The position numbers and the translations under genes were made by a program. Positions 12,313 through 63,658 of a stretch of 64,000 bases of DNA are shown piece after piece. This stretch comes from a virus. Lineage: Duplodnaviria > Caudoviricetes. The stretch spans positions 1 to 64,000 of the IMG/VR virus record IMGVR_UViG_2706795806_000001; one strand, written 5' to 3'. Position 1 is the first letter of the stretch, and the number at the start of each line of letters is the position of its first letter. The notes under the pieces are model-generated. The model was not told where the DNA came from. It ran no database searches and saw nothing but the letters and a program-made list of their open reading frames with translations.

Positions 12313-15243
12313 TTGGCAGAAAAAGTGTATACATCAATTATGATGGAAGAGACAAACTCTTACGTCGAAAAGTTTCCAGAGTTTATTGAGGCTATCAAGT
12401 TTCAAAAAGAGGATTTATTTTGGACGCATGAAGAGATTAAGATTGAGAAAGATGAAGCAGACTTAAAAGAAAATATCCATGAGGCTGGTAAACATGGTTT
12501 AATGTTCAACCAACGACTTTTTACAAAGTATGAAGATGTCATCGGTAATGACTATTGGATTGGTGTTGTACATAAGAGATACAAAAACTCAGAGATTCGT
12601 CGTCTGGCTATTTGTTTTGCTGATGTAGAGAACAACATTCACTTCCCATTCTACCGTAAAGTAAATGAGGTTATGGGAACACATACAGACGAGTTCTATG
12701 ACGCATTTGAGACTGATCCTGTACTAATTGAACGTGTTAAGTTTATGGGTGATCTTGTAGGCTCTAAAGACACACTGGCATCAATGGGTGGATTTGCATT
12801 CATGGAAGGGGCTGTACTATTCACTGCTTTTGCTTTCATTAAATCTTTTGGTGTAAATGGTCAGACATTTATCCCTAACTTGATTGCTGGTATCAACATG
12901 TCAATCCTTGATGAAAACTTCCACATGCAAACAGCTTGTGAGATTTTCAAGAAGCAGTTGGAGTTAGAGGGTCGTAGTGATGCAGATTTACGAGAACTGA
13001 AGCGTAAGATTTTTGCACATGCTGAAAATGTAGTGGCACATGAAGATTTAATCGTAGATGCTATGTTGGCTAAAGGTGATGTACCTTATGCTTCTAAAGT
13101 GGAACTTAAAGCTTTTGCTAGACATCGTGTGAATAAAGTTCTTGTGAATCTTGGATTCCCTGAGTTAGCTACATTCGACGAGACTGGAGACACAATCTCT
13201 GAGTGGTTCTATAAATTCATGGAAGCATTTACTCACAATGATAACTTCTATGCTCGTGGTCGAAACTACAAGAAAGAGTTCTCAGCTATTGATTTTGATA
13301 TCTTCTCTGATAAAGAGTATGAGGATGTCTTAGCTATGATCCCTGACGAGTATCTGGATCAAATGGGTATTGACCTGAACAAGAGTTATGAAAAGAATCT
13401 TGATGAGGTATTGAAGGATGAAATCAAGGCTTCTCAAGGTAGCTTAGGTTTGACTTTGGAAGAGGAAGAGCAGAGAGTTGATCCTCTATATGTTCCTGAC
13501 TTCAGTAAAGAGCGTAAAGAGTTGCAAGAGAAAGGGTTAGCACCTGAATGGATGGCAACGGCTGGATGGCAGTTAATGAAGAAGAAATACTTGAATGCTG
13601 GATCAAAAACTCCATTTGACCAATATGATCGTATTGCTAAAACATTGGCTCAGTATGCACCAGATGTCTACCCTGATTGGTGGAATGAGATTGATTACTG
13701 GAAGGGATTAACTTGGGAACAAGCATTCTTTAAAGTAATGTGGGATGGCTTCTTGAGTCCTTCAACCCCTGTCTTGTCAAACACTGGTACGAATTTAGGT
13801 ATGTCTGTATCTTGTTCTGGTGGTGTAACAGAGGATAGTGTTGCTGGATTCTACGACCAACGTAAGATCAATGCCTTGCTAAGTAAAGAAGGTTTTGGAA
13901 CTACAATTGACCTCTCAGAAGTTCGTGGTCGTGGTATGCAGATGAAGGGTGGTATTGCAAATGGTGCGAAGCCTGTAGCTGAGATGTTTGTAGATGATGC
14001 CTTAAAGATTAGTCAAGGATCACAACGTCGAGGTGCTGGAGCTTGGTACTACCATGCAACTGGACAAGACTTCCATGAATTGATTCACTTCTTAGAGTAT
14101 GATACAGATGGAAATAATGGTGGTTGGAAGATTCCTAATGAGTTGATCAACCGAGCAATGTGTGGAGATATGGAAGCTGTTTTACGTCTTTGTAAGATTG
14201 TTACTACTCGTCACCACGTAGGTCTTGGTTACATGTTGTTTGAAGATAAGATTAATGTCTTACGTCCTCAAATGTATGTTGATCATGGCTTGATGGTTAA
14301 ATCTTCAAACTTGTGTACTGAGATTACATTATTCAGTGACAAAGACCACACATTTACTTGTGTACTTTCAAGTGAGAACTTGACACGATTTGATGAACGT
14401 CCTGAAATGCTTGCTTTCGTTGGTACTGTATTCCTTGACTGTGTTGCTGAAGACTTTATTCAGAAAGGTCGTAAGGTAGCAGGGCTAGAGAACGCTGTAC
14501 GCTTCACAGAGAAAGGAAGAGCGTTAGGGTATGGAACTATGGGCTTTGCATCTTATCTCATGGAGAAGGGCATTGAGTACGGTTCTATGGAGTCTATGTG
14601 GAGAAACGAGGAAATCTATAAAACGATTAACCGTGAATCTAAGGAAGCTTCTCGTTGGATGGCTGTTGTACTTGGTGAGCCAGAATGGTGTGTAGGTTAT
14701 GGAGTTCGTAACACACATACAATGGCAATTGCACCAACTAAGTCTACTGGGTTGTTAATGGGTGGAGATTCTGAAGGTATTAACGTACCGCCAGCATTTG
14801 TATTTGCTCAAGATACTCCAGCAGGGACTGTATATCGTATTGATCCAACATTCTTACGATTGTTGAAACGTAAAGGGTTATATGTCATTGGAGAGGATAA
14901 ACGAATCACAGATGAGACAGATGCGTTACTTAAACGTATTTCAGATCAACTTGGTAGTGTTCAGACTCTTACAGATGTATTGACCGATGAAGAACGTGCT
15001 GTGTTTAAAACAGCTTACGAGATCAACCAGTTCAAGCATATTGATCTGTGCGCTCAACGTCAGAAGTATATTGATCAGGCTCAGTCTATCAACGTATTTA
15101 TTGCGAACATGGAAGCTAAGGATATTATGCGTTTGTACTTGTACGCTATGCTAAATCCAATGATTCTTTCTTTGTATTACCACACTGGAATCCGTGATTC
15201 TCGTATTGGTGAAAACAAGAATGAGTGCGAATCTTGCATGTGA
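12313..15243 (+). CDS. nrdBA: Class I ribonucleotide reductase, beta (NrdB) and alpha (NrdA) subunits fused in one ORF
   Basis: N-terminal ferritin-like part (FW..EI, E74, E106/H110, Y114, E165, E201/H204); C-terminal alpha part (SPSTP, SC, NLCTE, APT, YY, CESC); no stop between; TTG start with AGGAG RBS. Confidence 0.9.
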   Translation: MAEKVYTSIMMEETNSYVEKFPEFIEAIKFQKEDLFWTHEEIKIEKDEADLKENIHEAGKHGLMFNQRLFTKYEDVIGNDYWIGVVHKRYKNSEIRRLAICFADVENNIHFPFYRKVNEVMGTHTDEFYDAFETDPVLIERVKFMGDLVGSKDTLASMGGFAFMEGAVLFTAFAFIKSFGVNGQTFIPNLIAGINMSILDENFHMQTACEIFKKQLELEGRSDADLRELKRKIFAHAENVVAHEDLIVDAMLAKGDVPYASKVELKAFARHRVNKVLVNLGFPELATFDETGDTISEWFYKFMEAFTHNDNFYARGRNYKKEFSAIDFDIFSDKEYEDVLAMIPDEYLDQMGIDLNKSYEKNLDEVLKDEIKASQGSLGLTLEEEEQRVDPLYVPDFSKERKELQEKGLAPEWMATAGWQLMKKKYLNAGSKTPFDQYDRIAKTLAQYAPDVYPDWWNEIDYWKGLTWEQAFFKVMWDGFLSPSTPVLSNTGTNLGMSVSCSGGVTEDSVAGFYDQRKINALLSKEGFGTTIDLSEVRGRGMQMKGGIANGAKPVAEMFVDDALKISQGSQRRGAGAWYYHATGQDFHELIHFLEYDTDGNNGGWKIPNELINRAMCGDMEAVLRLCKIVTTRHHVGLGYMLFEDKINVLRPQMYVDHGLMVKSSNLCTEITLFSDKDHTFTCVLSSENLTRFDERPEMLAFVGTVFLDCVAEDFIQKGRKVAGLENAVRFTEKGRALGYGTMGFASYLMEKGIEYGSMESMWRNEEIYKTINRESKEASRWMAVVLGEPEWCVGYGVRNTHTMAIAPTKSTGLLMGGDSEGINVPPAFVFAQDTPAGTVYRIDPTFLRLLKRKGLYVIGEDKRITDETDALLKRISDQLGSVQTLTDVLTDEERAVFKTAYEINQFKHIDLCAQRQKYIDQAQSINVFIANMEAKDIMRLYLYAMLNPMILSLYYHTGIRDSRIGENKNECESCM

Positions 15244-37006: not shown

Positions 37007-38857
37007 ATGAACTTCAATCAATTCTTTGAAAAATTTGAAGGTGCTACATCAACTTTAGCTAAACAGGCTATTATGGAAGAGTATCTGTCAAATCAAGTAC
37101 CAGCTTTAAACCCATTCCTGTATTGGACTGACTCTTACAAGATTTCACACATCACTTTTGAAACAAAAGGTGTTGAGAATATCTACTCGAATGCTACAGC
37201 TCGTTTCTGTAAATATATGCGAGAGCTTCTTGGTGAGCATTATGATGATACATTTGTTGTGTTTGGTATCCAATGGATGATGATTCGTTTTCACTTGATG
37301 GCTAAGAATGGTTTCTTTGCTCGTGATAAAGATGAAGTTATGGATGAAATGCGTGATGTCCTTACACCTTATATTGGTCAGGATCGCTTCAAGCATTTTG
37401 AAGACCTACATGATATGCAGTATGTGCCTTTGATTGTTAAATCAATTGACGAAGGTTCTGTGATGCCTATCGGTATGCCTTTCTACACTTGTGAAAACAC
37501 TGTGAAAGAGTTTGAGTGGTTAGCAAACTTCCTTGAGTCTGGTATGTCTACAGATACATGGAAACAAATGACAGTTGCAACTATTGCTTATGCTTTCCGT
37601 AAGATTAGCAATCAATTTGCAATGGAGACACAAGGTAATTTGGATGGTGTAGATTTCCAAAACCATGACTTCCATACTCGTGGAGCTAGTGGTATGGAAT
37701 CTGGAGCTGTAGCTGGTGTGGCGTTCTCTTTATCTTCTTTAGGTACAGATAACCTACCATCATTGTGGGCTTCTCGACACTTTTACTTTTCACGTAACAC
37801 TAAAGAACGTCAGTTCCAAGCGTCAGTCCCTGCTGGTGAACACTCAGTTACTACTTTGGGTATTCTAACAGAACAACGTCGAGCTGAAGCACGAGGAGAG
37901 GAGATTTCATTATCTGAAGCAGAGCGTCGATATACTCAGTGGATTATGAAAGAGCAGTTCCCAACAGGTATTGTATCTTTTGTAGCTGACAGTTTTGATT
38001 ACTGGAACTTCATTACTGAGATTGTGCCTTCGTTGTATGATGATATCATGGCTCGTGATGGCAAGTTTGTAGTACGTGGTGATAGTGGTGATCCTGTACA
38101 TATTATTGCTGGGTACAAGATTCTTGATCTTGACTCTAAAGATAGTGTACGTGGACGATTCCGTACTATTGAGCAGTTGAAATACAACACTCATTTATGG
38201 TGGGAAAATGGCATTGAGGTTATTAAGTTCAATGGTGAATATTACAAACTCAACTCAAAATTCTATGAAAATGGTATTTTAGAGACAATCAATGAAGAGA
38301 AGATTTCTCGTGAAGAGGCTCTTGGGACAATCGAATGTCTTTGGAATATCTTTGGTGGTGAGGTAAATGATCTAGGATTCAAACACTTAGACTCACACAT
38401 TGGGATGATTTATGGTGATGGTATTACTGTTCATCGTTCTGTTGATATCTTAACTCGTCTTCGTGACAAAGGTTTTGCATCAACAAATATTGTTTTTGGT
38501 GTAGGTAGTTATTCATTGAACATGCTTTCTCGTGACCATCTTGGTATGGCTATTAAAGCAACCAACGCCATCGTAGATATTGAAGGAACTTTGACAGATA
38601 CACCAATCTACAAAGAACCGAAAACAGATATGAGTAAGAAGTCTGATCGTGGTTACTTAGTTGTCCTGAAAGATGATGAAGGTAATTACACCAAGAAAGA
38701 TTTACAATCTCGTAAAGCAATGCTTGAGATTGGAGAGCTAACAACTTTGTATATGAATGGTCAATTCCATAAGTTTACAAATCTTGGGAAAATCCAAGAC
38801 CGACTGTGGGCTGAAAAGCCTGAACCAAAAGAGGTGGTTGAGGAGACTGTAGTATAA
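37007..38857 (+). CDS. Nicotinamide phosphoribosyltransferase homologue (probable NARP1 Namat)
   Basis: TDSYK.SH, HDF..RG, GTD, SVPAGEHS, VADS, R.DSGDP, IYGDGI, FGVGS, KKS.RG. Confidence 0.88.
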   Translation: MNFNQFFEKFEGATSTLAKQAIMEEYLSNQVPALNPFLYWTDSYKISHITFETKGVENIYSNATARFCKYMRELLGEHYDDTFVVFGIQWMMIRFHLMAKNGFFARDKDEVMDEMRDVLTPYIGQDRFKHFEDLHDMQYVPLIVKSIDEGSVMPIGMPFYTCENTVKEFEWLANFLESGMSTDTWKQMTVATIAYAFRKISNQFAMETQGNLDGVDFQNHDFHTRGASGMESGAVAGVAFSLSSLGTDNLPSLWASRHFYFSRNTKERQFQASVPAGEHSVTTLGILTEQRRAEARGEEISLSEAERRYTQWIMKEQFPTGIVSFVADSFDYWNFITEIVPSLYDDIMARDGKFVVRGDSGDPVHIIAGYKILDLDSKDSVRGRFRTIEQLKYNTHLWWENGIEVIKFNGEYYKLNSKFYENGILETINEEKISREEALGTIECLWNIFGGEVNDLGFKHLDSHIGMIYGDGITVHRSVDILTRLRDKGFASTNIVFGVGSYSLNMLSRDHLGMAIKATNAIVDIEGTLTDTPIYKEPKTDMSKKSDRGYLVVLKDDEGNYTKKDLQSRKAMLEIGELTTLYMNGQFHKFTNLGKIQDRLWAEKPEPKEVVEETVV

Positions 38858-53802: not shown

Positions 53803-54796
53803 CTAGTCACCATAAATTTTCTTGTATGCTTCTGATCCAACCCTCACTCCTTCTGCTGTAAATTCAGGAGGTGGATAGTTTTTATCATGATCCTCAACTA
53901 CCCAACCACACTCACAAACTCCATAGACATAGATACACTTATGAGGTCTACTTTCTTCTTCCACTGGAACTTTCCCAGCAAGAGCCGATCTTAGATCATA
54001 GTACAACTTCATCTCAAGGTTTCCCGAAGGAGTGAAGTCATCAAGAATTGCTTCTATCAGTTTTAATTTATCCGACATCTTCATTTGGAATCTTCTCCAG
54101 AATCTCTGCCAATGTTTTCAAAGTATCCCCTGATAAAACCACACGAGCTGTATTGTTGATACGACCTGATAGCAAATTTATCTGTTTTGATATGTTTAGA
54201 AAACTCTTCAGCTTTGATGCTATACGTGGCACTTCATCTTTAGCTCTTCGACCCATTCCGATATAAAAGTTCTTATCTTTCTCTGGATCATAGGCATTCA
54301 ATTTCTCAATCACTCTTTCTAGTTGATGAGTGTCCATCTCTATGGATAAGTCTGTCATAATTAATCTCCTCTTTTGGTTTGTGCATGACACAGTTCATAA
54401 CACTCTTGATCTGCTCCTTCTCATACTCTGTAAGTTTTGAGATGGCATCTAGGGCTTTATAGAAGTTCCTACTTCTGTTATTCAAGTCTAGCATTATATC
54501 ACAGCTATTAGCATGTAAGGTATCCATGTACAAAACGATAGATACCAAATAAATGCGACAAGACCTATCAGGATAATCCAGTCAATAATCTTGCCTACCA
54601 CCTATGCCACCACTGTAATAGCGAATGACTCATCATCCATAATCAACTTACCTTCAGTGAGTAGCAACTCGACATCACCACTGCACATATCAATTCCTTT
54701 TAAATATTGTCTTAGATATTCTTCAGTATCGAATACCTTTAAATCTACATCAATGTAATTTCTTGGTGTAGAAGCTACAGCTAAAACGTAACTCAT
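53803..54796 (-). other. Small hypothetical genes at the distal end of the minus-strand operon
   Basis: ORFs 53803, 54068, 54306 and 54602 with RBSs. Confidence 0.5.
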
Positions 54797-54805
54797 ATTT
54801 TCCTC

Positions 54806-55129
54806 CTATTGTACACAAGTCTTTTGTCCATCCGTTACAACTAAGACAGAACATTTACTGTAATCGAAATCACTGGATTTGTCTGTTTCAGCCTCTTTAG
54901 GGATACATACAACTTCATTCTTACTGTTCAGTTTGAAGTTCATCCCATTTAGTGTGCAAGTACGTCTGTCACGAGCTTGTTGATCTGGGAGGCTACGAGA
55001 GCCATCCTTATCTCTTACTGTACTGACATCTTCATCACTCTTTAATGCTGGGAAGATTATAGATGCCAAAATCCCAATAATAGCCACTACAATCATTAAC
55101 TCAATTAGAGTGAAACCTTTGTTTTTCAT
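54806..55129 (-). CDS. Type IV prepilin-like protein (class III signal peptide)
   Basis: MKNKG/FTLIELMIVVAIIGILASI; E at +5; two Cys pairs including a terminal C-x11-C; AGGTGG RBS. Confidence 0.85.
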   Translation of the reverse strand: MKNKGFTLIELMIVVAIIGILASIIFPALKSDEDVSTVRDKDGSRSLPDQQARDRRTCTLNGMNFKLNSKNEVVCIPKEAETDKSSDFDYSKCSVLVVTDGQKTCVQ

Positions 55130-56284
55130 AACACCACCTATGTAGTTTTTGTCCGTAGTATATTGACTCAGGACAATGTTCAAAATATCCGTAAGCCCAA
55201 TAACCTACGCACTTACCTCTAGCCCAATAAGACTTCTCAGAGGTACAAGGGCTTCCCCAAGCCTCCAAGCTATCTTCGACCCTTTCAGATATTCTACCGT
55301 ACCTGATTAGGAAGTACAAGGACTTTAAGAATAAAACAAGTTTAGTATATTGTTCTGTAACAAACATCCCTACCTCCTATTGGAAGAATGATATTGTCAA
55401 ACTTCCTTTCTCTGATCTTCCCACAATGCTTGCACTTACCAATATCGTATGAGAATAAGTACCAGCGATTAAATGCTTTAGGATAGTTTGGATGACCTCT
55501 TTTACATTCATGCTCCCAGTAATGAACCTCTTCGATTCGCTCAAATTCGCATGTGTGGAACAGCCTCCAGATTAAACCTTTCTTCCGTGTGTTGACGATA
55601 ATCGGCATGGTACACTCTCCAAAATTTTAAACTTAATACTTGCAGAGAACCAAGATGTAGAATCATTAAAGATTTGTCCATATTCAACTGCTTCGACCTT
55701 GAAACGACTAAAAGCTTTAGGCATCTTACTTGCTGGGTATGTGGTGCATTCCCTCTCCCACCCATTTAGGGAGTACAGTTGAGCATCTGCTGAGTATCCC
55801 TCTTGGTATCTACCAAAATCAACCACCTTATCTACAACTTGATGGTATTTTGAGATATCTTCAGCGACATAAAACTCTTTACCTAGTGGAATGTTTCTAT
55901 TCAGGTGGTCAATGGCATTGAATCCATTTTGACTACTAAACCTGAACTGCTTCATTAGTTCAAATTCATCACCTTCACTGAGTTTAATAATCTTCAGGAT
56001 TTCATCCTCCCAGAGATTCAACCTTTTAGCCATCAAACTTTCCTCCCATAAAATTTATAAAACACTGTATCTGGTAGCGTAAAGAATCTTCCATCAAGAG
56101 TGAGGTATGTGATCCTTACATCTTCATACTCTCGACCTGATATTGGCATCTTATGCTTAGACTTCCTAAGTTCAACTACATGGACATCTTCTCTATCATC
56201 TCCCCATATCCCAATATACTTTGGAGATAACAATCTTAATACAGATAGTGCAAACTTATTGATTATCAACATTCTCTCAAGCAT
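55101..56284 (-). other. Four small hypothetical genes
   Basis: Overlapping ORFs 55101, 55342, 55572 and 56033. Confidence 0.5.
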
Positions 56285-56292
56285 ACAACCTC

Positions 56293-56532
56293 CTAAATTG
56301 GGAAAACTTTTGTTGTGTCCACAGATTTAAATTTCTCTTGAAACTCTGCCAGAGGTCTTGAGTAGATAACTCCACCCTCACTAACATACACAACAGTTTG
56401 TGGGAAGCCAGCACGACCTGAATACTCATTAGAGATAAACAGAACTCGATACTTGTTACCTGTTTTTGTGTGGATATACTCTCTTGACATTTTTGCCAAC
56501 AACTTTAAAAGTAGAAGTTTCACCATTTCCAA
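56293..56532 (-). CDS. DUF1653-like protein
   Basis: Y.H.K.GN.Y.V...VVY......Y.RP..EF..KF. Confidence 0.7.
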   Translation of the reverse strand: MEMVKLLLLKLLAKMSREYIHTKTGNKYRVLFISNEYSGRAGFPQTVVYVSEGGVIYSRPLAEFQEKFKSVDTTKVFPI

Positions 56533-56686
56533 TATACTCCTTGATGACTATAGATGTCATAACATGCAAACATCAATAGTATTGCGAAAATTACACGACA
56601 CATTAATGTCGCTTGTGTTGTTGTGCAGAAACCCTCTACCCAAACAAAAAATGCCACCAATGCCGTGAGCATTGCTACTGCTAATA

Positions 56687-57055
56687 TCATCTGCTGTTCT
56701 CCAAATATGTCCGAATCACATCACCGTGACACTTCTCTGGTTTACAGAAGCAAACCAATGTCACAGGACTTTTACGACTTAACTCTAAAACCTTGTTTAG
56801 TGCAAGGTAAGAGTGTTCAGACAATCTCCTGTTGTATAGGTCAAATTCAAACTTCTCTATTGCACACTCCCTAGACTCAACTTTTACAACATCTTTGTAT
56901 CGTGAATCTTTGTGGGTGTAAATATTACCTAAAGGGCTTCCACGACCTATGTATACGTGTGACCCATTAATAAATCCAGTGTCAAACATATCAATATGCT
57001 CAACACCCATCTTTACCACAGATATCGGATTATCATCAAACATTTTATCCCTCAC
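56687..57055 (-). CDS. DUF4326-like protein
   Basis: YIGRGSPLGN and LVCFCKP..CHGDVI. Confidence 0.75.
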   Translation of the reverse strand: MRDKMFDDNPISVVKMGVEHIDMFDTGFINGSHVYIGRGSPLGNIYTHKDSRYKDVVKVESRECAIEKFEFDLYNRRLSEHSYLALNKVLELSRKSPVTLVCFCKPEKCHGDVIRTYLENSR

Positions 57056-57342: not shown

Positions 57343-57624
57343 TCAAGTAACTTGTTCTAAAATTTTCTGGAAAAACAGCATTGCAAACAACTCATCATCA
57401 TCCATACCAAGAAACCCTGATTGGTCAATCTCTTTTGCAAGACCATCAACACATCCAGATGCACCTTCAAGTAGCTCACTAAGCTCTTGTAACTGCTCTT
57501 CAGAGCAATCAGATTTAATTCCATTGAACACATCACCAACTTTCTTCATGTCCTCTCTGAACCTAGTAGCGTTCTCAGGAGTCATATTACTTAAAGCATT
57601 CTTTGCAATATCGAAGCTAGTCAT
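57343..57624 (-). CDS. Hypothetical protein
   Basis: GGAG RBS before MTSFD. Confidence 0.55.
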   Translation of the reverse strand: MTSFDIAKNALSNMTPENATRFREDMKKVGDVFNGIKSDCSEEQLQELSELLEGASGCVDGLAKEIDQSGFLGMDDDELFAMLFFQKILEQVT

Positions 57625-58066
57625 AACTCCCTCCAGAACAACTTGAGCTTCCAGAGTCACTACCACTATCACTTGAATATGATGGTGTAGGTGAACTATA
57701 TCCACCAGAGCAACGATCATCATCTCTGTGGCTGTTTGAGCTGAGAGCCGATCCCACTACCATCCCTGTCATCATGTGGTCATTTGATGTATTGTGGTGT
57801 ATATGGTTAGATAACCCAGTGTGCCTACTTGAAGATACACTAGAACCAACAGAAGGCGACCTAGTTGGAATCTTAGCCTCTTGCACAATAGGTTTACTCT
57901 TCAGGCTACCAGAAACTGATACCGAACTCTTAATCACATTTATGTCAACAGGTTTCTGTGGTGAAACTTTCTTGGATTTCTTACTCATCTTTCTGAGGTA
58001 CAGACCACCAAGAATTGTTAGAGATAAGATAAATAAAATTAAAAATACTAAGCAAAATGTCGGCAT
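57617..58066 (-). CDS. Membrane-anchored protein with Ser/Gly-rich tail
   Basis: N-terminal TM; C-terminal SSDSGSDSGSSSCSGG. Confidence 0.65.
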   Translation of the reverse strand: MPTFCLVFLILFILSLTILGGLYLRKMSKKSKKVSPQKPVDINVIKSSVSVSGSLKSKPIVQEAKIPTRSPSVGSSVSSSRHTGLSNHIHHNTSNDHMMTGMVVGSALSSNSHRDDDRCSGGYSSPTPSYSSDSGSDSGSSSCSGGSYD

Positions 58067-59242: not shown

Positions 59243-59270
59243 ATTATACATGACATCATGTAGAAGTCAA
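59243..59270 (-). promoter_or_regulatory. Promoter of the minus-strand operon
   Basis: TTGACT-16-TATAAT with palindrome TACATGA-CA-TCATGTA in the spacer. Confidence 0.75.
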
Positions 59271-59972: not shown

Positions 59973-60061
59973 GGTAGATAGCGTCAAGGTGACAAAGTGG
60001 ATTTGAAATCCATGCTATTGGTTAGTAGCCGATAAGGGTTCGATTCCTTTATCTACCTCCA
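59973..60061 (+). tRNA. tRNA-Ser(TGA)
   Basis: Cloverleaf, long variable arm, TTCGA, CCA. Confidence 0.85.
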
Positions 60062-60063
60062 AA

Positions 60064-60151
60064 GGGAGTTAGACGACTGTTGGTTGGTCGTAGCAGACTG
60101 TAAATCTGCCCTCACAAAGCATCATTGGTTCGATTCCAATAGCTCCCACCA
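60064..60151 (+). tRNA. tRNA-Tyr(GTA)
   Basis: GCAGA-CTGTAAA-TCTGC, CCA. Confidence 0.9.
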
Positions 60152-60158
60152 AGATTAT

Positions 60159-60247
60159 AGAGAATAAATAGCTTAGGTAGCTAGACTCCCTGCTAAGGAG
60201 ATCGACTGATTAAATCGGTTTCGTTTCGAGTACGATGTTCTCTGCCA
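60159..60247 (+). tRNA. tRNA-Ser(GCT)
   Basis: CTCC-CTGCTAA-GGAG, long variable arm, GCCA. Confidence 0.8.
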
Positions 60248-60350
60248 TACATGCTTCGAGGTATTTCGCTACCGAAGATGTTGGGTTTGCCAGTATGACT
60301 TTAGGAAACTGGAATTAATTTTTTTAAATAATTTAATTATGAGGTGTTAT

Positions 60351-60593
60351 ATGTTTGGTAAGAAAGTTACTTGTGCGAACAAGATTGCTAGTAAATCATT
60401 AGATGTTTTTGCTGGTGCTAAGGAACAGATTCAAAGTGGTATGGATGAGATTGTAGCCAATCGTGCTAATCGTGTTGTCTTGAAAGAAGAGTTACAAGCT
60501 CAGTTAGCTGAAGTTTGTGGCGAGATTGACAAAGATGATGAAAATCTTGCACTTTTGAAAGGTAAATTAGAAAGTATTGATAAACTGATTTAA
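60351..60593 (+). CDS. Small coiled-coil protein
   Basis: GAGGT RBS. Confidence 0.6.
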   Translation: MFGKKVTCANKIASKSLDVFAGAKEQIQSGMDEIVANRANRVVLKEELQAQLAEVCGEIDKDDENLALLKGKLESIDKLI

Positions 60594-60662
60594 TCGGTTT
60601 TGAGATAGGCGGTGAATAAGGAATTCTCGAATAATGGATATTACAAGAGACACCGCCACCTT

Positions 60663-60738
60663 ACGTCATTGGTCGAGCGGATTAGGCATCACACTTCTAA
60701 TGTGACTTACAGGGGTTCGAATCCTCTATGGCGTACCA
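60663..60738 (+). tRNA. tRNA-Arg(TCT)
   Basis: TCACA-CTTCTAA-TGTGA, CCA. Confidence 0.9.
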
Positions 60739-60825
60739 AGATTTATTATGGATGAATACAGATCATCGAAGCAGTTTAGCTACCCTGATTGGTTTGAGCA
60801 ATATTCATCACATAATAAATTTTAA

Positions 60826-60900
60826 GGGTTGGTAACTCAGTGGTAGAGTGACTGTCTGAAGAACAGTAGGTCGTAAGTTCGATTCTTACCCTTCCCACCA
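60826..60900 (+). tRNA. tRNA-Phe(GAA)
   Basis: ACTGT-CTGAAGA-ACAGT; two U-U pairs in the acceptor stem. Confidence 0.85.
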
Positions 60901-61017
60901 AATATAAACTGTGGAGATATAGTCCGATGTTTTGATGCAGTTCGTAACTGCCTAGCTACAGTGTTGTAGGTCATGTTAATCACGGATTGTGGTGGTTCGA
61001 CTCCACCTCTAAACAAT

Positions 61018-61092
61018 AGCGGTATAGTGTAATAGGTAGCACGAAAGGCTCATAACCTTTTAGTTCGGGTTCGATTCCCGATACCGCAACCA
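61018..61092 (+). tRNA. tRNA-Met(CAT), 1:72 mismatch (initiator-like)
   Basis: AAAGG-CTCATAA-CCTTT, CCA. Confidence 0.85.
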
Positions 61093-61098
61093 AACAAT

Positions 61099-61174
61099 GG
61101 TCGATTAGCTCAGTTGGTAGAGCAGTAGCCCGATAAGCTATTGGTCGCTGGTTCAAATCCAGCATCGACTACCA
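61099..61174 (+). tRNA. tRNA-Ile(GAT)
   Basis: GTAGC-CCGATAA-GCTAT, CCA. Confidence 0.85.
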
Positions 61175-61180
61175 TTTAAT

Positions 61181-61266
61181 TCTTGTGTAGACAAACTGGT
61201 AAAGTCAGTGGACTGTTAATCCACCGCTTAATTGCACTGTAGGTTCGAAGCCTACCACAAGAGCCA
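61181..61266 (+). tRNA. tRNA-Asn(GTT) with long variable arm
   Basis: GTGGA-CTGTTAA-TCCAC, GCCA. Confidence 0.85.
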
Positions 61267-61272
61267 AACAAT

Positions 61273-61349
61273 CAGGGTATAGGGCAGTCTGGTAGCCTAT
61301 TTCTTTTGGAAAGAAAATGTCGATGGTTCAAATCCATCTACCTTGACCA
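61273..61349 (+). tRNA. tRNA-Pro(TGG)
   Basis: TTTCT-TTTGGAA-AGAAA, CCA. Confidence 0.88.
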
Positions 61350-61354
61350 ATTAA

Positions 61355-61638
61355 GTTGTGTATCGTCGGCTGTCGTGAAAACGATAAAGGTTATACTCAA
61401 AAGTGACATGGTACTGGGACAGGCAATTGCTCCTCCTTTTATCAGTGGAATTATGATCGCCACGAAGGATCGTATTACCCAGTGAAATGATATCTAAGTA
61501 ACTGGCAAGATGATAAGGAGTTCTCGAATATCTCTTTGTAAAACGCTCGAAATCGAAATTATCATGTGGAAGTATTTACAGGAGATGCACTATCGGTTGG
61601 CGGTAGGTTAAGTTGGTTCGAATCCAACCCCATGACCA
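61355..61638 (+). ncRNA. Candidate structured RNA ending in T-arm + CCA
   Basis: GTTGG-TTCGAAT-CCAAC-CCCATGACCA 3' end; several complementary blocks; no D or anticodon arm. Confidence 0.45.
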
Positions 61639-61688
61639 AATTTAAATTTACCTACATGAGTGTAACTGATATGGTTGTAGGTAATTTT

Positions 61689-61764
61689 GGCTCTGTAGCA
61701 TAGCGGATTATGCGCCTCCCTGTCTAGGAGAAAAACGAGGGTTCGAGTCCCTTCAGAGTCGCCA
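61689..61764 (+). tRNA. tRNA-Asp(GTC)
   Basis: CTCC-CTGTCTA-GGAG, GCCA. Confidence 0.88.
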
Positions 61765-61812
61765 ATATAGGTTTTGGATTGCTGTCGAAAGACTCCCCCA
61801 GAGCCGACAAAT

Positions 61813-61906
61813 TCTGTAGCTGATGGACGTAAGGTATGGGCTTATAATCCAACCGACAAGGATAAGGTATGGTAAGCGAGTGATCATTAGCTTCCCTACA
61901 GAACCA
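61813..61906 (+). ncRNA. tRNA-like RNA: acceptor stem + ACCA without a canonical T-arm
   Basis: TCTGTAG/CTACAGA-ACCA. Confidence 0.4.
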
Positions 61907-61993
61907 ATTTAGGTAAAGAACCTTAAACACTCTGTTGAGATGTTAAGAGGACAACTGGAGCTGAGAACCTAACTCATTTAATAGCTCCTTTTC

Positions 61994-62067
61994 GCTGGTA
62001 TCGTATAATGGTATTACGCTTGTTTTGTAATCAAGTCATGGCAGTTCGATTCTGTCTACCAGCACCA
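61994..62067 (+). tRNA. tRNA-Thr(TGT)
   Basis: Loop TTTGTAA, CCA. Confidence 0.85.
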
Positions 62068-62098
62068 AGATTCGTTGTATATTAAGAGGTGTATTTTG

Positions 62099-62398
62099 AT
62101 GGAACATTTAGCTTTAGGTAAATATATTTTAGTTGAGTTGGCAAGTGATGAGAAAGTTTCAAAGGGTGGTATTTTACTTCCTGATGATCAAGTTCAAGCT
62201 GACTGTAAACGATCTCGTGTAGTCTCTGTATCAGAAGATTTACTTGAGATGTATTCACAAAAAAATCGTAAGTTCCCATTAAAGGTTGGTGATATTGTAT
62301 ATCATGCCTTCCATATTGGTACACCACTTACAACACATGATGACAAGAAGTTGACAGCGATTCATATCGACAACGTGTTATCTGTGGAAATCGGTTGA
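62099..62398 (+). CDS. groES: GroES-like co-chaperonin
   Basis: LG..ILVE....E.VSKGGILLP...VVSV...LKVGD.V. Confidence 0.85.
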   Translation: MEHLALGKYILVELASDEKVSKGGILLPDDQVQADCKRSRVVSVSEDLLEMYSQKNRKFPLKVGDIVYHAFHIGTPLTTHDDKKLTAIHIDNVLSVEIG

Positions 62399-62399
62399 T

Positions 62400-62474
62400 A
62401 GGTCGTTAGTGTAAAGGTTGCACAGTGGATTCCAAATCCTCTTGAATGGGTTCGATTCCTATACGATTCTGCCA
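62400..62474 (+). tRNA. tRNA-Trp(CCA)
   Basis: Loop TTCCAAA, GCCA end. Confidence 0.8.
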
Positions 62475-62533
62475 AATTAAGCGTTGCATCGTTTAATCAA
62501 ACTTAAAGTTTGAACCTTAATCAAACTGGCAAT

Positions 62534-62607
62534 TGTCGTATGGTGTAATGGTAGCACCTCAGAATTTGACTCTGATAGCGAAGGTTCGATCCCTTCTACG
62601 ACTTCCA
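62534..62607 (+). tRNA. tRNA-Gln(TTG)
   Basis: TCAGA-ATTTGAC-TCTGA, CCA. Confidence 0.85.
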
Positions 62608-62609
62608 AT

Positions 62610-62684
62610 GTAGTCTTAGGTTATATGGTAAACCCACAGGTTGTGACCCTGAAAAACATGGTTCGAGTCCATGAGATTGCACCA
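62610..62684 (+). tRNA. tRNA-His(GTG)
   Basis: CAGG-TTGTGAC-CCTG; A73 with T at -1. Confidence 0.85.
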
Positions 62685-62686
62685 AT

Positions 62687-62763
62687 TGATCGGAAGCTAA
62701 AGTGGAGGAAGCACTGGACTTTTAATCCAGATAAAGAGGGTTCAACTCCCTCCCGATCAACCA
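62687..62763 (+). tRNA. tRNA-Lys(TTT)
   Basis: CTGGA-CTTTTAA-TCCAG, CCA. Confidence 0.88.
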
Positions 62764-62764
62764 G

Positions 62765-62916
62765 ATTTATTACTGGGACAATTTAGATGATGAAGGCGTT
62801 CAGTCGCTCTTATGTCAATAGGTTAAGTGGGTTCGATTCCCTAGCTGTGGTCAGCACAACCGAAATTCTAGACTTCACATATTAGTGTTTGTGTTTAGAT
62901 TGTCCCAGTAATAAAT
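62765..62916 (+). ncRNA. Candidate long-stem RNA with internal T-loop
   Basis: 24-nt terminal inverted repeat enclosing GGG-TTCGATT-CCC. Confidence 0.45.
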
Positions 62917-62927
62917 TTGTTTTAGGA

Positions 62928-63003
62928 GAGCCATAATCTAAAGGCTCGAAGAGACGATCTGCAACATCGTTGTTAGTGAGTTGAAGTCTCACATGGTTCT
63001 CCA
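62928..63003 (+). tRNA. tRNA-Cys(GCA), atypical
   Basis: ACGAT-CTGCAAC-ATCGT; T-loop TTGAAGT; TCCA end. Confidence 0.7.
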
Positions 63004-63015
63004 AAGTAAATTAAA

Positions 63016-63090
63016 GCGTGTGTCGTATAGTGGCAATTATAGGTGGCTTCCAACCATCGGACGAGGGTTCGATTCCCTCCACCCGCACCA
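63016..63090 (+). tRNA. tRNA-Gly(TCC)
   Basis: Loop CTTCCAA, CCA. Confidence 0.88.
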
Positions 63091-63096
63091 AATTTT

Positions 63097-63172
63097 GTTC
63101 TCATCGTCTAACTGGTCAGGATGCCACACTCTCAATGTGGTGATTTGGGTTCGATCCCCAATGAGAATACCA
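63097..63172 (+). tRNA. tRNA-Glu(CTC)
   Basis: CCACA-CTCTCAA-TGTGG, CCA. Confidence 0.85.
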
Positions 63173-63178
63173 AACAAT

Positions 63179-63253
63179 GCTCTATTCGTCTAATGGCTAG
63201 GATTTCTCCCTTTCAAGGAGAAGAAGAGGGATCGAAACCCTCATAGAGTACCA
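63179..63253 (+). tRNA. tRNA-Glu(TTC)
   Basis: TCTCC-CTTTCAA-GGAGA; T-loop ATCGAAA. Confidence 0.85.
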
Positions 63254-63266
63254 AATTGGAGGTTGT

Positions 63267-63497
63267 ATGATTGAAGATGTTTTACTTTCAGATATTGATT
63301 GTGTTTCAAATTGTGGTTTAGGTAACTATATGTTCAAAACCATTACAAGATCATACACCTTAAACGTACCAAAGAAAACTCTCCTGAGATTCATTAAAAA
63401 GGAAGGTGGCTTTGGTATGACAGAAGATTGGTTTGATAAAACCATTGTTCTTAATGATGAAGAATTTAATAAGCTTAAACAAAAGCTTTGTATATAA
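63267..63497 (+). CDS. Hypothetical protein
   Basis: GGAGG RBS between tRNA genes. Confidence 0.55.
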   Translation: MIEDVLLSDIDCVSNCGLGNYMFKTITRSYTLNVPKKTLLRFIKKEGGFGMTEDWFDKTIVLNDEEFNKLKQKLCI

Positions 63498-63498
63498 T

Positions 63499-63575
63499 GC
63501 TCAGGTAAGAGAATTGGCATATCGCACAGTCTTAGAAACTGTGATTTGTGGGTTCGAGTCCCACCCTGAGTACCA
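63499..63575 (+). tRNA. tRNA-Leu(TAG), short variable loop
   Basis: ACAGT-CTTAGAA-ACTGT, CCA. Confidence 0.85.
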
Positions 63576-63581
63576 AATAAT

Positions 63582-63658
63582 GATCGGGTAGGCTAACTGG
63601 CAAAGCTGACAGACTTAAAATCTGTTGTTTGTGGGTTCGACTCCCACCCCGATTACCA
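63582..63658 (+). tRNA. tRNA-Leu(TAA), short variable loop
   Basis: ACAGA-CTTAAAA-TCTGT, CCA. Confidence 0.85.

Follow-up and report, generated by a model that had tools for sequence, protein, structure and literature searches.

The stretch of DNA that was analysed (the window, 64,000 nucleotides) is the first 64 kb of the genome of Acinetobacter phage vB_AbaM_Acibel004 (99,730 bp, KJ473422), an assignment made because the coordinates of ORF097, the gene with which this report is concerned, coincide with those listed in Table S2 of the genome paper. Acibel004 infects A. baumannii and was described as lytic, with a genome of 99,730 bp, 37.3% G+C, 22 tRNAs, a latent period of 27 min and a burst of 125 (PMC4128745). 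The earlier note, made from the sequence alone, had also called the phage lytic, and this is borne out by the absence of an integrase in the genome as well as by the published description with its 27-min latent period (PMC4128745). The genes for replication and metabolism include a primase-helicase, a DNA polymerase, a fused ribonucleotide reductase, a thymidylate synthase, a ligase and a nicotinamide phosphoribosyltransferase (NAMPT), and the structural genes include those for the terminase, portal, capsid, tape measure, baseplate and fibres, so that our own annotation agrees with a virulent myovirus. Among cultured phages, phiAbaA1 and the Saclayvirus phages are the nearest, at 74% terminase identity.

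Several genes elsewhere in the genome were recorded during the annotation. A 976-aa ORF at 12313-15243 (+) covers the ribonucleotide reductase small subunit with residues 7-368 and the large subunit with residues 415-975; its matches are to PHROGs 86 and 84, with a full-length match to PHROG 30939, and these matches suggest a fusion of NrdB and NrdA in which the alpha part is short. The nicotinamide phosphoribosyltransferase (37007-38857, +; PHROG 448) has 616 aa, and NAD-salvage genes of this kind have been linked to the countering of NAD-depleting defences. Beyond the window, at G000 70759-77406 (+) (L119:6759-13406), a 2215-aa ORF lies directly after the major head protein and has numerous recurring matches among the tail, adsorption and Ig-like PHROGs; the literature lists it as the tail fibre gp123 with unique domains.

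The features of the ORF097 locus are collected in Table 1.

Table 1. Features at and around ORF097 in the Acibel004 window (positions in the window; the basis of each assignment is given under remarks)
Feature	Position	Strand	Remarks
ORF097 CDS	54806..55129	-	107 aa + stop, prepilin-like protein; translation, Table S2 of PMC4128745, purifying selection
Shine-Dalgarno AGGTGG	55134..55139	-	4 nt before the ATG at 55129; direct sequence reading
Leader peptide MKNKG, residues 1-5	55115..55129	-	N_methyl/TIGR02532 match; ends in Gly-1, predicted prepilin peptidase site
Hydrophobic alpha1-N helix, residues 6-30	55040..55114	-	mature F1, E5, G14, P22; PilA identity, hhalign, hydropathy
Charged linker, residues 31-42	55004..55039	-	stands where true pilins have the amphipathic alpha1-C; pLDDT <50 for 31-43
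Conserved head, residues 43-107	54809..55003	-	one helix, two beta-hairpins; Cys58/75/93/105 predicted as two disulfides
ORF098, upstream neighbour	55101..55367	-	88 aa, Trp/Tyr/Cys-rich; last 29 nt shared with the start of ORF097
ORF096, downstream neighbour	54602..54796	-	64 aa, without family; homologue downstream in L001, L002, L005, L008
Sigma-70-like promoter candidate	59243..59270	-	TTGACT-16-TATAAT, 11/12; consensus scan only; heads the leftward block

The 107-aa ORF starting MKNKG|FTLIELMIVVAIIGILASIIFPALK that the earlier note had picked out is present on the reverse strand. The coordinates that it gave, 54806-55129, are correct as positions; the gene's strand is the minus strand, and the plus-strand frame is full of stops. 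A longer, TTG-initiated form called by the ORF finder (54806-55183) would have an unusually long leader and lacks a Shine-Dalgarno sequence. ORF097 is a genuine gene, not an open frame due to chance, as seen from purifying selection (eight DNA-level homologues compared) and from the position of its variants: in three wastewater contigs the gene is intact, and 10/12 substitutions fall at third codon positions, the other two being K41R and I24L. The pilin-like label is not new and dates from 2014, when the gene was listed in Table S2 as 'PilE-like', 54806-55129, minus strand, 107 aa (PMC4128745), although ORF097 is mentioned neither in the text of that paper nor in two later comparative papers. 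The product gp097 is not named as a virion protein in the text or supplements of PMC4128745, which is weak evidence against its being a virion component, and a 107-residue viral protein in BFVD (A0A075DXH6) is 100% identical to it.

ORF097 belongs to a leftward block, running from 59251 to 53595, of approximately 20 small minus-strand genes, almost none of which has a family, in what the genome paper terms 'presumably the early genes region' (PMC4128745). The promoter candidate at the head of this block should be read with the observation that promoter-like sites in the region are in total not above those in shuffled sequences; the zone at 59.2-59.9 kb is rich in divergent promoter-like sites. 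Between the early block and the packaging genes lie 21 tRNA genes (59973-63658, +) as found by ARAGORN, where the genome paper gives 22. The upstream neighbour, ORF098, has no Pfam or PHROG match; in the related contigs L001 and L002 and the distant L003 the pilin gene is preceded by an ORF098 homologue, which is not the case in L006, and ORF098 may be a functional partner of ORF097. The same block encodes a 56-aa membrane protein with two hydrophobic segments (56520-56690, -), another membrane protein, of 149 aa, in which a transmembrane segment at the N-terminus precedes a long tail rich in Ser (57617-58066, -) and a DUF4326/DUF488-like protein (56687-57055, -) that occupies the same place in L001 and L002. 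A role for ORF097 as a lysis protein, either holin or spanin, was considered and rejected: the endolysin gene (96245-96865) is on the opposite strand at a distance of 41 kb, and there is no match to a lysis PHROG.

A class III prepilin signal had been claimed for the N-terminus of ORF097, and two curated models are exceeded there: Pfam N_methyl (PF07963) matches with 38.7 bits against a cut-off of 21.2 (E 5.9e-10), at the N-terminus only, and TIGR02532 matches, likewise at the N-terminus, with 38.6 bits against a cut-off of 16.3. The sequence has the short basic leader ending in Gly-1, the hydrophobic residue at +1, the Glu at +5 and the hydrophobic helix of ~20 residues of such signals (Kyte-Doolittle maximum of alpha1-N, 2.89), and both G-1 and E+5 are invariant in 9/9 members of the family described below. 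It is by these two residues that processing of prepilins and the registration of one pilin with another are defined. From this signal we infer that PilD would cleave after Gly5 and methylate Phe6, and a protein so cut would have 102 residues when mature. Models of full-length pilins and pseudopilins match residues 1 to ~39 only and far under their cut-offs; GspG (34 bits against 88.85) and GspH (33.5 against 80) match at residues 4-39 only, and thus ORF097 does not qualify as a full-length pseudopilin or FimU/GspH-like protein. No match to PF00114 was found in Pfam, and six PHROG families with the same N-terminus match ORF097, one of which is named 'pilin'.

When alpha1-N was compared with all prepilin-type genes of five Acinetobacter genomes, 19-20/26 residues were identical to PilA, with the first 17 mature residues the same, against 12-17/26 for the other, minor-pilin-like prepilin-type genes and 13/26 for the GspG-type pseudopilins. 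The helix is therefore of the PilA type and not GspG-like, which upholds the earlier reading of it as close to a major pilin. In hhalign, a profile of 74 Moraxellaceae and Pseudomonas PilA proteins was matched with 99.5% probability, at residues 3-32 only. There is no sign of a recent capture of a host pilA, because the nucleotide identity of the helix is at most 52/66 despite 19/22 amino acids being identical. The phage carries no other pilus genes, as had been stated: the 99,730-bp genome has this single N_methyl match and lacks Peptidase_A24, T2SSE and T2SSF. As the phage has no prepilin peptidase, motor or platform of its own, ORF097 would depend on the PilD of its host, and exactly one prepilin peptidase per genome was found in 5/5 Acinetobacter genomes.

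The remainder of the protein is of another kind. The AF2 model consists of a helix at residues 8-30, a low-confidence gap at 31-43 and a second helix at 47-60, and the head is modelled as one helix and two hairpins (pLDDT 65.7 for the whole model and 70.3 for the head-only model). The two Cys pairs and the terminal C-x11-C described in the earlier note are present as C58, C75, C93 and C105, all four of which are invariant in nine homologues, and C93-x11-C105 ends two residues from the C-terminus. This spacing resembles the C-x12/13-C-x1-3-end of many Moraxellaceae and Pseudomonas PilA proteins, as a pattern only. The four invariant Cys fit an oxidising compartment, and the head is probably exported and held by two disulfides. 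The body, called non-pilin in the earlier note, has no detectable similarity to pilins, as shown by the 0.2% probability that hhalign gave against PilA heads and by a shuffle test of the body against PilA, in which z was ~0 (2.0 for the distant homologue P0047).

No usable fold match was obtained for either model, the pLDDT of both being no higher than 66-70. With the whole model, Foldseek found nothing in the PDB at E <= 0.001, VIA-align wide returned single-helix matches only (Z <= 3.6), and the BFVD search returned A0A075DXH6, the protein itself, and weak rows only. With the head-only model, Foldseek gave only weak helix-hairpin toxin-like rows in the PDB (E ~1), VIA-align wide reached Z 2.3 and the Atlas TM <= 0.48. 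The ESM Atlas feature search gave no match, and a PDB profile search with the head sequence found none, the best having E 0.43.

A survey of phage homologues had been proposed as a check, and searches of 5.8 billion and 1.84 billion proteins returned nine family members in all, 46-99% identical to ORF097, each with the prepilin N-terminus and each from wastewater or sewage assemblies or Logan contigs. An exhaustive phmmer search for the head gave only P0002 and P0047 beyond the N-terminus, a head-only profile search gave eight family members and nothing else, and a scan of IMG/VR gave no further loci of the family. All loci are syntenic relatives of the same leftward small-gene block of Acibel004, and the family therefore belongs to one phage lineage. 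Phages of the Acibel004 type are present in public runs of at least 10 studies, mostly of wastewater; for expression, no RNA run was found among the public runs with the gene, those labelled RNA-Seq being probably DNA. No Acinetobacter phage in the phage collection has this pilin-like gene, and a tblastn search of that collection with the neighbouring gene at 55572-56036, in which the syntenic locus in cultured relatives was sought, gave no match. Since Saclayvirus and phiAbaA1 do not have ORF097, it is dispensable for this type of phage. Signs of mosaicism were seen within the locus: between 54806-55129 and L005:207-530 the helix has pS 0.05, with near-identical synonymous sites, and the head pS 0.36, and in one wastewater contig (run X15, 54504-54856) 740 unrelated bases stand in place of the last 17 codons and the gene downstream.

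Across the nine members, G-1, mature L3, E5, the four Cys and the block QA-DRRTC-NGMNF are invariant. Within the phage family dN/dS is about 0.15-0.6 for residues 1-34 and 0.02-0.10 for residues 43-78, the value for the head being measured at a synonymous divergence of pS 0.5-0.7. Mean pairwise identity in the phage family is 58% for alpha1-N and 74-82% for the head, against 92% and 20% respectively in a host-type PilA set, of which the 92% is inflated as the set was chosen on the first 14 mature residues. Conservation is thus inverted relative to real pilins, with the head conserved and the helix variable, and the lower conservation of the helix weakens the case that it packs in a filament core. 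In the most distant member, P0047, the stretch that corresponds to the linker still reads IPAYQQY, as in PilA, and the alignment with PilA extends to about residue 47, which suggests that the family descended from a true pilin, the signal past mature residue 25 being marginal.

Set beside PilA, the major type IVa pilin of Acinetobacter, ORF097 has the same short basic leader to Gly, Phe+1, Glu+5, G14 and P22. It differs in length (102 mature residues, where PilA has ~135-165 residues), in having a charged linker of predicted low order in place of the amphipathic alpha1-C that makes the PilA alpha1 a continuous helix of ~53 residues, and in a head with no significant similarity to that of PilA; unlike PilA, it is encoded by a virulent phage without genes for the machinery.

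Phage-encoded pilins have been described previously. P-FimU of Pseudomonas prophages is incorporated into pili and blocks tip-binding phages (Sztanko et al., Cell Rep 2026, PMC12952977), and the same study lists PilA-like genes in non-temperate phages, some truncated to 60 residues, for which incorporation or a block of assembly was proposed (PMC12952977); Acinetobacter is not mentioned in its main text. These proteins are like ORF097 in being phage-encoded, in having a pilin N-terminus and in their proposed role in exclusion via the host pilus. They differ in that P-FimU and P-PilA have full-length folds which overlay the host FimU and PilA and are highly diverse, whereas the head of ORF097 is non-pilin, unique and conserved. 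Also known are small genes of virulent T4-like phages that start with a prepilin signal, namely Aeromonas PX29p038 (31 aa) and Vibrio CZ01_309 (60 aa), and the members of PHROGs 13280, 10597, 11263 and 3433 ('pilin'), which start in the same way in virulent phages. As early as 2010, the annotation of one T4-like helix-only ORF noted its likeness to the N-terminal region of pilin. The helix-only and PHROG proteins end soon after the helix or have unrelated tails, and in the sequence searches the head of the ORF097 family turned up in no other protein.

Inhibitors of type IV pili that are not pilins are also known in phages. With Tip, Aqs1, PfsE, PIT4 and CpiA, ORF097 shares a proposed outcome, the loss of pilus function for exclusion; these inhibitors are located in the cytoplasm or the membrane and have PilB, PilC, PilZ or histidine kinases as their binding partners, and to our knowledge none of them has a prepilin signal. 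PIT4 is an early protein of the lytic phage LSL4 and abolishes twitching (PMC10714779). In Acinetobacter, competitors that depend on the pilus include the ssRNA phage AP205 (PMC10980823) and the dsRNA phage CAP3 (PMC8402811).

Taken with the evidence above, we put at about an even chance the reading that ORF097 interferes with the host type IV pilus machinery as an early, chimeric miniature pilin. The leftward block of small genes would be transcribed by the host RNA polymerase, and the prepilin would insert in the inner membrane, where host PilD would cut it after Gly5 and methylate Phe6; so far the scheme is drawn from the sequence, and we infer what would come after. The mature 102-residue protein would join the membrane pool of PilA with its two-disulfide head in the periplasm. 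The PilA-type alpha1-N with its E5 would act as an address label to the type IV pilus assembly platform, and the conserved non-pilin head would block or derail the machine. It might do so as a subunit onto which no more pilin can be added, or through contact with a conserved component in the periplasm, for example the secretin, the alignment complex or the minor-pilin/PilY1 primer. Functional pili would then be lost rapidly, pilus-dependent competitors would be excluded, and twitching and DNA uptake would stop. The dominant-negative or decoy pilin of the earlier note is thus plausible. Against it stand a head with neither detectable pilin similarity nor a fold match, which may not be able to pack in a filament, and the absence of the gene from the cultured relatives. 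A benefit against superinfection by Acibel004 itself is unsupported.

The main new argument in weighing the readings is the inverted conservation. The pilin-like segment could instead be a plain N-in/C-out anchor for a periplasmic effector whose head acts on a target other than the pilus, for example by stopping superinfecting phages from injecting their DNA or by blocking their tail lysozyme, and we hold this to be possible but doubtful. Exclusion proteins of the T4 Sp/Imm type do consist of an N-terminal transmembrane segment and a small periplasmic domain. An anchor of this sort is in keeping with a head that is conserved and not detectably pilin-like on a helix that drifts, with a small gene in an early block, a position typical of exclusion genes, and with the other small membrane proteins in that block (56520-56690 and 57617-58066). 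It leaves unexplained, however, why G-1 and the buried E+5 should be invariant in 9/9 members, and an invariant membrane-buried Glu together with Gly-1 is hard to explain for a mere membrane anchor; the helix is moreover specifically PilA-like, and ORF097 matches no PHROG exclusion family, only pilin-like PHROGs. A further reading keeps the pilin address and gives it another use: the helix would be a delivery tag, by which the host prepilin pathway (PilD, platform and motor) serves as a secretion route for a disulfide-locked 'warhead' that is inserted in the pilus machine or leaves by the secretin and reaches the pilus tip or cell surface. We consider this unlikely.

We give less weight to the remaining readings. 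Substitution of the P-FimU type, in which the protein joins working pili at the tip or in the shaft without harm to them and masks or replaces the site used by a competitor phage, has a tested precedent in Pseudomonas prophages (PMC12952977), and a PilA-like alpha1-N with E5 would permit incorporation. We nevertheless judge it improbable. The heads of P-FimU proteins are full pilin folds and highly diverse, while that of ORF097 is tiny, non-pilin and strongly conserved, the opposite of an arms-race surface; a head that is not diversifying, unlike those of pilins and P-FimU, more likely recognises a conserved partner than presents an altered surface. The pairing of a conserved head with a variable helix thus argues against receptor masking and favours a pilin-addressed inhibitor with a conserved target. 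A subunit without the alpha1-C and beta-sheet contacts would be unlikely to spare the fibre, and there is little point in lasting masking within a lytic cycle of 27 min. Entry into the pseudopilus of the type II secretion system and a block of secretion is a very remote prospect. Pseudopilins are processed by the same peptidase (PilD) as the pilus system, and the N-terminus of ORF097 is matched by pseudopilin models as well, GspG and GspH among them, but these matches are N-terminal only and far under the cut-offs, the 13/26 identity of alpha1-N with GspG compares with 19-20/26 for PilA, and a lytic phage has no obvious gain from it.

Equally improbable is a decoy in which the helix alone titrates PilD or mimics an excess of PilA to PilS so that pilA is shut down, an idea that the earlier note had raised. 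PilS does sense PilA via its conserved N-terminal segment (PMC10714779), and helix-only pilin ORFs occur in other virulent phages (Vibrio CZ01, 60 aa; Aeromonas PX29, 31 aa). The idea fits poorly because neither PilD titration nor signalling through PilS explains the conservation of the head: the helix alone would suffice for either, and it is the head that is the most conserved (dN/dS 0.02-0.10). The helix also drifts from the PilA consensus in several members, and repression of pilA transcription would be slow against a latent period of 27 min.

The novelty of the gene was overestimated in the earlier note, as both the occurrence of pilin-like genes in virulent phages and these hypotheses had been discussed before (PMC12952977) and the gene itself was annotated in 2014. 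ORF097 is distinct in that a PilA-type helix is fused to a private, conserved head, predicted to be Cys-bonded, in a cultured virulent phage of Acinetobacter. Acibel004 is available in culture, infects a priority pathogen lytically, is used in therapy and has been included in the Belgian phage cocktail BFC2, and the role of ORF097 is answerable at the bench with existing strains. The gene offers a functional test case for the pilin-like genes of virulent phages, which have so far only been listed in genome tables. The inverted conservation points to a defined binding target, and the 65-residue head is accordingly a candidate for probing or inhibiting the pilus machine. Were the helix a delivery tag, ORF097 would define a class of phage effectors that are chimeric, addressed as pilins and equipped with a conserved head for a specific target in the host or in a competitor phage. 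If ORF097 disables type IV pili, then twitching, DNA uptake and sensitivity to pilus phages would be altered in a treated population, which would bear on cocktail design.
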